A stretch of DNA of 4,790 bases from a virus (Duplodnaviria; Heunggongvirae; Uroviricota; Caudoviricetes), in the IMG/VR virus record IMGVR_UViG_2693429601_000018. One strand, given 5' to 3'. The notes under the pieces are model-generated. The model was not told the origin of the DNA, ran no database searches, and saw nothing but the letters and a program-made list of their open reading frames with translations. Below, in pieces: positions 1,270 through 4,456 of the stretch (position 1 is its first letter; each line of letters opens with the position of its first letter). The position numbers were made by a program, and so were the translations under genes.

Positions 1270-1346
1270 GCGTTGTTAGCTCAGCCGGACAGAGCAATTG
1301 CCTTCTAAGCAATCGGTCACTGGTTCGAATCCAGTACAACGCGCCA
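1270..1346 (+). tRNA. argO: tRNA-Arg (anticodon UCU, reads AGA/AGG)
   Basis: Acceptor GCGTTGT/ACAACGC, D-arm GCTC-AGCCGGACA-GAGC, anticodon arm ATTGC-CTTCTAA-GCAAT (anticodon TCT), variable loop CGGTC, T-arm ACTGG-TTCGAAT-CCAGT, discriminator G and encoded CCA (1344-1346). Symbol by gene order from memory. Confidence 0.88.
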
Positions 1347-1360
1347 GACTTATTTTTCCC

Positions 1361-1386
1361 GGCTCGCTTTTGCGGGCCTTTTTTTT
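1361..1386 (+). terminator. Rho-independent terminator after the tRNA cluster
   Basis: Stem GGCTCGC (1361-1367), loop TTTT, stem GCGGGCC (1372-1378) with one G-U pair, followed directly by a T8 run (1379-1386). Confidence 0.7.
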
Positions 1387-1582
1387 AAATGTCTCACAAT
1401 TCAGACGGTTGACAGTTGTCTGTTTTGCGGGGAGTTTGTTAAAAGAAACTGGCATGGTGAATCCCCCTGTGCGGAGGGGCAATCAGCGAGTAGGTATATG
1501 GGATAATCGCGGATTCAGGTGCTGGTACTGAATTCACCGGGAGGCACCCGGCACCATGCAATGGCACATAGCGCCACTCTCC

Positions 1583-1620
1583 AGCCCCTCTCCGGAGGGG
1601 CTGTTTATATTGATTTTGTC
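1583..1620 (+). terminator. GC-rich hairpin with an interrupted U-rich tail; terminator-like or RNA 3'-end structure
   Basis: AGCCCCTC (1583-1590) pairs with GAGGGGCT (1595-1602) as an 8 bp stem around loop TCCG, followed by GTTTATATTGATTTTG. The T-tract is interrupted, so intrinsic termination is uncertain. Confidence 0.35.
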
Positions 1621-4090: not shown

Positions 4091-4174
4091 AAAGTGAGCC
4101 AGCCAAATGGAAGGTATCGTTAAACTCACCGGTAGTGTCAGTGGGTCGTCTGAGACGCCTGCATGAGTTATCAG

Positions 4175-4206
4175 AGCCATCAGTACTTAACTGGTGGCTT
4201 TTTTTA
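4175..4206 (+). terminator. Rho-independent terminator between the esterase gene and the holin
   Basis: Stem AGCCATCAG (4175-4183), loop TACTTAA, stem CTGGTGGCT (4191-4199) forming 9 bp with one G-U pair, followed by a T-run (4200-4205). Confidence 0.65.
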
Positions 4207-4240
4207 TTGTTGTCAGCTTCCGGATAACGGGAGACGGGGT

Positions 4241-4456
4241 ATGTACCAGATGGAAAAAATCACAACAGGTGTGTCATACACCACGTCAGCGGTGGGAACG
4301 GGCTACTGGTTCCTGCAGTTGCTGGACAGGGTTTCCCCGTCTCAGTGGGCGGCGATAGGTGTGCTGGGGAGTCTGCTGTTTGGCCTGCTGACGTATCTGA
4401 CTAACCTGTATTTCAAAATCAGAGAGGACCGGCGTAAGGCGGCGCGGGGAGAGTAA
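4241..4456 (+). CDS. S: Class II holin, phage-21 S-type pinholin (71 aa) with dual start (Met1/Met4)
   Basis: [71 protein letters not shown]: two hydrophobic segments and a charged C-terminal tail, closely matching phage 21 S21 as I remember it (...[14 protein letters not shown]...[22 protein letters not shown]). GGGAG sits 7 nt upstream of ATG 4241, with a second ATG at 4250. The listed ORF start at 4163 lies inside the upstream terminator and is rejected. Confidence 0.88.

Follow-up and report, generated by a model that had tools for sequence, protein, structure and literature searches.

STnc100 is among the most abundantly annotated small RNAs (sRNAs) and has no assigned function (survey, PMC9029176). 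Here we examine a copy of its gene in a stretch of 4,790 nt from a virus genome (Caudoviricetes; IMG/VR record IMGVR_UViG_2693429601_000018), the whole of which is called the window below. EDL933 holds 11 STnc100 copies, most of them transcribed, and a Northern blot confirmed one of these, STnc100_4 (PMC5331693). Downstream of stx2B, the family copy overlaps EcOnc27, an Hfq-crosslinked sRNA that is the same as sRNA103 (PMC12711010) and is supported by Hfq crosslinking and analysis of cDNA (CRAC) and by Northern blot (PMC4104026; PMC7873438); its overexpression raised fimZ and espA mRNA (PMC12711010; PMC7873438). In enteropathogenic E. coli (EPEC), the EcOnc13 homologues PasD1 and PasD2 are abundant and were recovered with their targets by sequencing of ligated interacting RNAs (RIL-seq) on Hfq (PMC8550237), and Pearl Mizrahi et al. 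reported Hfq-dependent stability of the Pas sRNAs (PMC8550237). A common ancestry of PasD and STnc100 has been proposed in a 2026 preprint (10.64898/2026.05.13.724894). Finally, at least eight Sakai prophages have "convergent sRNAs" at their moron site according to Tree et al. (2014), e.g. EcOnc27 with AsxR and EcOnc06 with AgvB (PMC4104026; PMC7873438).

The hairpin cluster that a sequence-only reading of the window had placed at about 1440-1620 is a small-RNA gene of the catalogued STnc100 family of lambdoid-prophage RNAs, a kind already known, with EcOnc27/sRNA103 and PasD as relatives. We think it likely that 1451-1611 on the + strand is the gene for a prophage sRNA of about 160 nt, Hfq-associated, of the trans-acting base-pairing type and with its own sigma-70 promoter. 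Family membership, the covarying fold, the conserved promoter position, the terminator and synteny were computed here; transcription, Hfq binding and seed position come from the literature on homologues, from which we infer the ends, expression and targets of the window copy. What this analysis would add is a gene model corrected in its promoter and start, a pseudoknot, a dyad partner replaced by iraM, and the use of the RNA as a leader outside phages. The start at the closing stem, the covariation-supported pseudoknot and the mRNA-leader use would, if correct, change how existing data are read.

Family membership and nearest relatives

An Rfam/Infernal scan, one of the checks that the sequence-only reading had proposed, returned a full-length match to RF02076 (STnc100) at 1423-1612 (+), with 133.6 bits against a gathering score of 47 and E = 2.6e-30, spanning model positions 1-206 of 206. 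The full name of this family is "Gammaproteobacterial sRNA STnc100". Its secondary structure is upheld, with P1, P2, P4 and P5 (listed below) all forming in the window. The expectation that the + strand encodes a structured non-coding RNA whose end is the 1583-1620 hairpin is borne out by this match and by covariation. That reading had been unable to name an sRNA at this locus; a named family does apply.

By BLAST, 3080 of 5426 complete E. coli genomes carry the segment, at 10,015 places and up to 13 times per genome, and it also occurs in 285 phage records, mostly of Stx-converting phages. It is multi-copy in E. coli and Salmonella, in a prophage context like that of the window, and an ST131 isolate, for example, carries it at 99-100% identity. 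Twelve phage and prophage loci, 69-95% identical to the window copy, were taken for comparison, and Rfam recognised STnc100 in all twelve (107-208 bits), always on the late-operon strand; the VT2-Sakai copy (L002:3024-3229) scores 207.7 bits. In these loci the upstream neighbour varies (tRNAs, stx2B, stx1B or tciAB) and the downstream gene is the SASA/DUF1737 esterase nanS-p; E. coli homologues always lie between the tRNA/stx moron slot and the esterase gene. No non-coding RNA feature is annotated at the segment in the RefSeq genome inspected, and among the phage records listed only one (LC710660) has the STnc100 label. For annotation of the window, the segment is thus a named, widespread prophage sRNA gene, neither a new element nor the minus-strand protein of RefSeq. 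One copy of the family adjoins stx2, and its sequence variants have been reported as predictors of haemolytic uraemic syndrome (HUS) (PMC12711010).

EcOnc27/sRNA103 of the Stx2 phage Sp5/933W, located after stx2B, is a homologous gene in a homologous position. Identity to the window copy is about 71%, and the central insert, linker and terminator all differ; EcOnc27 follows stx2B and is paired with AsxR, whereas the window copy follows a tRNA operon and is paired with iraM. PasD1 and PasD2 likewise lie upstream of the SASA/nanS-p esterase and have P1, P2, the pseudoknot and P4 in common with the window RNA, together with a promoter at equal offset and a terminator. They score 31 bits with our core covariance model and fall below the Rfam gathering score. 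Unlike the window RNA, they have no P5 hairpin but only its GGGAGG, a longer linker with UGUGAG, and a different terminator. Neither the UGUGAG seed nor the PasD terminator GGCUGCGCA(U)UGCGCAGCC (cf. L255:660-729) is found in the window, whose linker and terminator are AAUGGCACAUAGCGCCACUCUC and CAGCCCCUCUCCGGAGGGGCUG.

In terms of the convergent dyads, the window RNA is the partner on the sense strand, located at the moron site that separates PR' from the lysis genes, but the antisense AsxR/AgvB partner is replaced by a protein gene, iraM. The general statement that lambdoid prophages of enterohaemorrhagic E. coli carry sRNAs and anti-sRNAs in the late region fits STnc100 as the sense partner of such dyads, with AsxR or AgvB on its 3' side in VT2-Sakai and Shigella phage 75/02.

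Fold, pseudoknot and transcript ends

The proposed gene model consists of the following parts.

1416-1421, +: probable -35 hexamer TTGTCT, from the best sigma-70 match (TTGTCT-18 nt-TAAAAG); TTG invariant in 12 copies
1437-1445, +: putative extended -10 element TGtTAAAAG; T1437, G1438, T1439, T1440, A1443 and A1444 invariant in 12 copies
1451-1611, +: predicted STnc100-family sRNA of about 160 nt, from the RF02076 match; start at about G1451/G1452 by analogy with PasD2 and from the promoter position, 3' end in the U-rich tail
1452-1459, +: P1 5' strand (closing stem), GCAUGGUG, pairing with 1552-1559
1464-1479, +: P2 hairpin, CCCCU[GUGCGG]AGGGG, with conserved loop GCGG
1482-1488, +: pseudoknot 5' strand, AUCAGCG, directly after P2, pairing with 1520-1526 in the P4 loop
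1489-1510, +: hypervariable insert, short in the window copy, with an extra hairpin in other subfamilies
1511-1535, +: P4 hairpin, GGAUUCAG[GUGCUGGUA]CUGAAUUC, pairs 1511-1518/1528-1535
1520-1526, +: pseudoknot 3' strand, UGCUGGU, in the P4 loop
1537-1551, +: P5 hairpin, CCGGG[AGGCA]CCCGG, containing GGGAGG
1552-1559, +: P1 3' strand, CACCAUGC (helix 1 of the covariation test)
1560-1581, +: linker of about 22 nt from the folded domain to the terminator, most likely the seed region by analogy with PasD
1582-1611, +: intrinsic terminator, a 9-bp stem (1582-1603) with an interrupted U-tail

The three stem-loops noticed from the sequence, CCCCT-GTGCGG-AGGGG (1464-1479), CCGGG-AGGCA-CCCGG (1537-1551) and the 8-bp hairpin AGCCCCTC-TCCG-GAGGGGCT (1583-1602), are all present, and the last grows in the terminator scan to the 9-bp stem 1582-1603, followed by TTTATATTGA. 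They correspond to P2, P5 and the terminator. Their description as independent stem-loops does not hold: the closing stem (1452-1459/1552-1559), P4 (1511-1518/1528-1535) and the pseudoknot (1482-1488/1520-1526) had been missed, and the whole is a closed multi-helix domain. Similarly, GGCACC does occur at 1543-1548 and 1550-1555, but it is not a tandem repeat element; the doubling arises because the loop and 3' strand of P5 (GGCACCCGG) abut the 3' strand of P1 (CACCAUGC). Hairpin stability proves neither function nor strand, since the energy z-scores are marginal and similar on both strands (-74.6 kcal/mol and z = -2.25 on the + strand, with 3 of 200 shuffles folding equally well; z = -3.08 on the - strand against its own shuffles). 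Homology and covariation, not folding energy, are the decisive evidence.

Covariation analysis, which had also been named as a check, gave strong support. Pairs were counted in 90 non-redundant copies, aligned plainly by MAFFT and annotated with the pseudoknot, and the counts were set against 500 shuffles. Paired cells amounted to 84.1%, compared with 74.0% after shuffling and 40-46% with slid partners, and the covariation score of 0.293 (0.135 shuffled) was reached by none of the 500 shuffles. Both sides had changed in all seven pseudoknot pairs, in all eight P4 pairs and in the three outer pairs of the 8-bp P1, the last exemplified by GCAUGGUG/CACCAUGC against GUGUGGUG/CACCACAC. The P2 stem covaries in subfamilies (e.g. 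CCUUUC/GAAAGG and CCACC/GGAUGG). At one P4 pair, 40 sequences have G-U and 34 have A-U, an alternation that pairs on the + strand only and so fixes the strand as +. In the homologue alignments the insert at 1489-1510 differs by indels 11-21 nt long, most of which are not divisible by three.

The pseudoknot was also examined without an alignment, by comparing the two segments of each RNA with segments swapped between RNAs over 5000 permutations. The mean helix was 6.19 bp as opposed to 4.47 +/- 0.13 bp in the permuted sets, and the mean duplex energy -8.17 as opposed to -4.38 kcal/mol; 0 of 5000 permutations reached the observed value in either measure. The 72 homologues that could be parsed contain 63 distinct helices at this position. 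The two strands covary between copies, as five examples show.

Window: 5' strand AUCAGC, 3' strand GCUGGU
VT2-Sakai: 5' strand CUGGUG, 3' strand UACCAG
Klebsiella: 5' strand GCCAGUC, 3' strand GACUGGC
Kosakonia: 5' strand UUUGAUC, 3' strand GAUCAAA
PasD2: 5' strand AAUGAUC, 3' strand GAUCAUU

These comparisons of sequences indicate that the STnc100 fold contains a conserved pseudoknot, one that nested folding programs miss. The structure line printed with the Rfam match has small local hairpins where covariation supports the pseudoknot, and the preprint cited above (10.64898/2026.05.13.724894) used RNAalifold and does not mention it. P5 behaves differently from the covarying helices: in 104 unique viral copies it is nearly invariant, with only single G-U-compatible substitutions, and these copies were collected from IMG/VR via the P2 motif, so that the search pattern did not force P5. 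Such a pattern indicates that the sequence of P5, and not only its pairing, is under selection. PasD2 is an exception, in which the P5 hairpin is gone and GGGAGG is kept.

The promoter is probably the one listed above, an assignment that leans on conservation across copies and on PasD2. In the window TTGTCT (1416-1421) is followed by an 18-nt spacer and TGtTAAAAG (1437-1445), with 6 nt between the latter and G1452. The perfect TTGACA that also occurs there (1409-1414) is 25 nt from the -10 element, which is too far, and two copies have lost it but retain the TTG of TTGTCT. A plain sigma-70 scan of the window gave no promoter upstream of the RNA, because the -10 element is without its terminal T. 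In 52% of 131 copies, drawn from many genera, GGUGAAU begins 8-11 nt after the end of the best sigma-70 match, against about 22% in shuffled sequences, and this promoter position across copies is what places the start at the first bases of P1. The region of homology among copies reaches about 60 nt beyond the 5' side of P1 and takes in invariant TG and TA bases at 1437-1441; with copies located after stx2B instead of tRNAs it starts at about 1393. In Salmonella, RpoD chromatin immunoprecipitation with exonuclease (ChIP-exo) gave signal at STnc100 promoters (PMC10794520). The ends of PasD2 (NC_011601 741157-741328) were estimated from RNA-seq coverage and Northern size (Table S6, PMC8550237). 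We find that its 5' end maps to the first G of GCAUGGUG and its 3' end to the end of the terminator U-run, and that TTGACT-18-TAAAAA-7 nt precedes the 5' end, the same promoter offset as in the window.

By this analogy the window RNA probably starts at about 1451-1452 and not at Rfam's 1423. The Rfam model begins about 28 nt upstream of this probable start, and its positions 1 to about 28 (1423-1450) are probably promoter DNA. The sequence-only reading had the strand right; its start at about 1440 is most likely too early. A start at the closing stem would bear on two published observations, depending in both cases on the numbering conventions used. HUS-predictive STnc100 variants have been reported at +90 (T<->C) and +103 (delta-T) after stx2B (PMC12711010), and in VT2-Sakai, where L002 3038-3053 is equivalent to window 1437-1452, P1 starts at +104 after stx2B. 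The variants would then fall at about -14, in the TG of the extended -10, and at about -1, beside the start, i.e. in the promoter and not in the body of the RNA. In a study of outer membrane vesicles, an 11-nt complementarity to stxB was proposed for "positions 5-15" of STnc_100 (PMC12370729); these would lie upstream of the start, outside the transcript.

Mode of action and competing explanations

We picture an RNA whose own sigma-70 promoter, with an extended -10 and a weak -35, would start transcription at the base of the 8-bp closing stem. The first ~108 nt would fold compactly, with P1 enclosing P2, P4 and P5 and the pseudoknot joining the segment after P2 to the P4 loop, and a linker of ~22 nt followed by the intrinsic terminator would complete the molecule. 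Assisted by Hfq, the linker would pair with target mRNAs in trans as in PasD, and the conserved 5' domain would serve as a scaffold, possibly for stability or for a partner protein. The RIL-seq target motif of PasD1/2 is CUCACA(GG), complementary to UGUGAG (supplement of PMC8550237), and chimeras of PasD1 map to its last ~50 nt (PMC8550237); UGUGAG is located in the PasD linker, immediately 5' of the terminator. By analogy, the linker at 1560-1581 may be the target-pairing seed of the window copy. A terminator follows P1 in 80 of 147 homologous copies, mostly at a distance of 20-40 nt, and the others run into open reading frames (ORFs); homology of the window with other phages ends directly after the terminator stem.

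Several points speak against such a trans-acting sRNA. A discrete transcript is known from homologues and not from the window copy, whose U-tail is interrupted (UUUAUAUU) and weaker than typical Hfq-binding tails and whose linker is without the PasD seed UGUGAG. No STnc100 member has a validated target, the fimZ and espA effects coming from overexpression only (PMC7873438). In EPEC, pasD1 and pasD2 levels did not change significantly between the strains compared (padj > 0.05), unlike those of pasA and pasB (PMC8550237 supplement), and such flat levels sit uneasily with strict Hfq dependence. About 46% of the family copies are without a terminator and resemble mRNA leaders, kdgM included, which argues for a function of the domain on its own. 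The near-invariance of P5 and the complexity of the fold also go beyond the needs of a plain base-pairing sRNA. Lastly, pairing (RNAduplex) of the window sRNA with the translation-start regions of iraM, the esterase, the holin and the next ORF was no better than in shuffled controls, and the same was found for the VT2-Sakai STnc100 against AsxR.

The terminator-less copies came to light through a wider collection. At least 120 stretches of species-representative genomes contain the 21-mer ACCGGGAGGCACCCGGCACCA, made up of P5 and the 3' strand of P1; they come from genera that include Kosakonia, Enterobacter, Klebsiella, Raoultella, Citrobacter, Buttiauxella, Trabulsiella, Superficieibacter, Pantoea and Erwinia, a collection with an ascertainment bias toward P5. 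When flanking genes were clustered and then assigned by Pfam, two main contexts emerged. One is the lambdoid late region, where Q (PF03589) precedes the RNA and holins and lysozyme come after it. In the other, found in 19 species, genes for a KdgM porin (PF06178, 8.9e-74) and a periplasmic pectate lyase follow ~140 nt downstream of the RNA, and a divergent LuxR-type regulator lies upstream. This second context is chromosomal, non-phage and leader-like, and it is not mentioned in the STnc100 literature examined. The kdgM-leader loci (L018, L031, L033-L035, L041, L043, L059, L093, L114, L128 and others) are without a terminator and score 78-96 bits with STnc100; kdgM-leader, lipoprotein-leader and tandem copies taken together score 69-96 bits with the Rfam model.

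From this distribution it could be argued that the conserved domain (P1, P2, pseudoknot, P4 and P5) is itself the functional unit, binding a ligand or a protein in the manner of a riboswitch aptamer or of a protein sponge or recruiter, and acting in cis on its transcript or titrating a factor, with pairing by the linker secondary or absent. The domain has its helices arranged around a junction and a pseudoknot, keeps the AAU, the GCGG loop and GGGAGGCA invariant while its stems covary freely, has a P5 conserved in sequence beyond pairing, precedes kdgM loci in 19 species, and other ORFs, in terminator-less copies (70-96 bits), and exists in tandem arrays. Yet no coherent ligand is suggested by downstream genes as varied as porins, lysis genes, small phage ORFs and regulators, and no partner is known. 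The phage copies have an opposite-strand sRNA or iraM before the next + strand gene, with no evident expression platform; terminator sequences are not conserved relative to the domain; and PasD2 has lost P5 but is an abundant, Hfq-recovered sRNA. We regard this explanation as unlikely. A related suggestion, tentative but somewhat easier to accept, is that the ~108-nt core (P1, P2, P4, P5 and pseudoknot, with the near-invariant AAU, GCGG loop and GGGAGGCA) may be an autonomous RNA module of Enterobacterales that binds a protein or small molecule and that serves multi-copy prophage sRNAs as their 5' domain and chromosomal genes such as kdgM as a leader without a terminator; if so, STnc100, EcOnc27 and PasD would not be ordinary seed-plus-Hfq sRNAs. 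As to a riboswitch, the domain has the complexity of an aptamer and leader-type copies are known; no Rfam riboswitch match in the window and no conserved alternative pairing was found, and the downstream genes are heterogeneous. The 3' strand of P2 (GGAGGGGC) resembles the 3' strand of the terminator in the window, as in a riboswitch-style antiterminator; the terminators are unrelated in other genera, making this a coincidence. A CsrA sponge was also rejected: GGA motifs do stand at hairpin loops, but the GGA of P2 is not conserved (GCGGA, GCGGU, GCGGC) and P5 has AGGCA, not ANGGA.

Explanations at the level of transcription or of protein fare worse. The segment might be a promoter-terminator cassette that keeps transcription of upstream morons out of the lysis genes and offers a recombination boundary where morons are exchanged, its RNA being a by-product like the lambda PR'-tR' 6S RNA. 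Phage homology does begin ~60 nt before the RNA and end exactly after the terminator stem, the cargo differs on either side (tRNAs, stx1, stx2 or tciAB upstream; AsxR, AgvB or iraM downstream), and in other genera the segment is located between Q and holin like lambda PR'-tR'. A role of the DNA, however, would not select compensatory changes in helices and pseudoknot, the G-U pairs are strand-specific, homologues are Hfq-bound and form chimeras with many mRNAs, and the fold has no homologue in the lambda Q-S interval (see below), all of which makes a cassette improbable. Even less can be said for a cis-acting antitermination RNA like HK022 put, promoting read-through into the late and lysis genes. 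The RNA is structured and stands after a promoter, before a terminator and upstream of the lysis genes, but the best score in HK022 is far below that of the window, homologues accumulate in lysogens as discrete terminated RNAs of ~170-190 nt, the opposite of read-through, constitutive read-through into lysis genes would be lethal, and these phages carry Q; we give it very little credence. As for a minus-strand small protein (ORF 1439..1567, 42 aa), in many genomes the RefSeq annotation pipeline (PGAP) has a "hypothetical protein" where the match lies, opposite the sRNA. This ORF is flagged as incomplete and as a pseudogene in the best-matching genome, the 11-21-nt indels of homologues, mostly not multiples of three, fall inside it, the variation obeys RNA pairing including G-U pairs valid only on the + strand, and the frame is not kept in other subfamilies, so that its chance of being the explanation is practically nil.

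Lambda 6S (PR'-tR') and StxS are short, constitutive, terminated transcripts between Q and the lysis genes, and StxS acts as an Hfq sRNA. StxS is at the 5' end of stxAB (review PMC7873438). STnc100 differs in that, in Stx phages, it lies downstream of the morons with its own promoter and is not a PR' transcript; the annotated PR' and tR' of VT2-Sakai are 2 kb upstream of it. The core covariance model (R1), which scores the window at 97.3 bits, found no homologue of the fold in the lambda Q-S interval, the best score being 11.6 bits. At lambda 44856-44942 (L254 1357-1443), between tR' and S, a stem UUGUGCUGAAU...CAGCACAA weakly resembles P1 with a GAAU junction, without P2, P4 or P5; this 11.6-bit stem is probably a chance match. 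With filters off, the whole HK022 genome including the put regions gave at best 10.5 bits. HK022 put resembles STnc100 as a phage-encoded, structured, promoter-proximal RNA, but the terminated transcripts of STnc100 homologues are the opposite of put function. Scores of 10.5 and 11.6 bits against 97.3 rule out a homologue of put or of lambda 6S.

Two further candidates concern the shape and coding content of the segment. The closed multi-arm form resembles a tRNA only superficially, and ARAGORN and the Rfam tRNA model call only the three tRNAs at 1095-1346 in the window. A small ORF from AUG 1556, behind the Shine-Dalgarno-like GGGAGG, was dismissed, its AUG being absent in most genera (CACCAC) and its frame passing the terminator without a stop. 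The + strand ORF 1298..1531 exists as had been reported and overlaps tRNA-Arg(TCT) at 1270-1346.

The dyad slot, neighbouring genes and other subfamilies

The order in the window is adenine methylase, tRNAs, RNA, iraM, SASA esterase and holin, with these neighbours of the sRNA gene.

Within 1095-1346: tRNA-Met(CAT), tRNA-Arg(TCG) and tRNA-Arg(TCT) (ARAGORN and Rfam)
1361-1378, +: tRNA operon terminator, the left boundary of the sRNA module, outside the RNA
1638-1973, -: iraM (anti-adapter protein; NCBIfam NF007393, 162 bits against a cut-off of 121, and RefSeq annotation of a near-identical locus)
2219/2234-4090: esterase nanS-p, with DUF1737, SASA and DUF6645 domains
4241-4456: holin

In VT2-Sakai, 2 nt separate AsxR (L002:3231-3283, -) from the 3' end of STnc100, and Shigella phage 75/02 has AgvB (L010:1666-1725, -) overlapping that end; a further anti-sRNA is found at L011 1731-1783 (-), with RF02702/RF02703 matched in all three loci (L002, L011 and L010). 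AsxR and AgvB each have their own terminator (AAAAAAAGCCCG... on the + strand). The Rfam scan of the window gave no match to either (RF02702, RF02703) at E <= 1, and iraM takes their slot, convergent with the sRNA. From these arrangements, the slot just 3' of the STnc100 terminator takes differing convergent cargo and acts as an exchange point. The minus-strand side of the shared hairpin is without a U-run, and therefore iraM transcription may run antisense into the sRNA gene. IraM is an RssB inhibitor that stabilises RpoS. The AT-rich island at 1613-2218 carries this iraM, which has ~76% DNA identity to K-12 iraM. The K-12 gene is just outside the e14 prophage, and no STnc100 remnant or core was found beside it.

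Beyond the E. coli prophages, two or three STnc100-type genes stand in tandem, 220-270 bp apart, in Superficieibacter, Enterobacter and several viral contigs (L040 6323-7018, L039, L036, L137, L153, L187), each copy apparently with its own promoter-like sequence and terminator. A separate subfamily (L021 2316-2443, L022 4085-4214, L028 1787-1921) has a different P2 (UGCGGCUCAGCGCA) and a P1 of 17-22 bp with covariation; a Shine-Dalgarno sequence and small ORF follow ~30-50 nt later, and the scores are below the Rfam gathering score.

Upstream of the module, 1057-1094 holds a stringent-type tRNA operon promoter (TTGCAG, 17 nt, TATTAT and a GC-rich discriminator tctgcgcgc) directly before tRNA-Met(CAT); the VT2-Sakai annotation has a "putative tRNA promoter" at the homologous place, and at the near-identical locus RefSeq names the CAT-anticodon tRNA as tRNA-Ile. 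Downstream, a PasA-like sRNA was considered for the esterase-holin spacer (4091-4240) and rejected, the minus-strand PasA segment of EPEC being absent from the window. The spacer keeps a + strand terminator-like hairpin, GCCATCAGT...ACTGGTGGC followed by a T-run at ~4178-4207, which is shared with EPEC.

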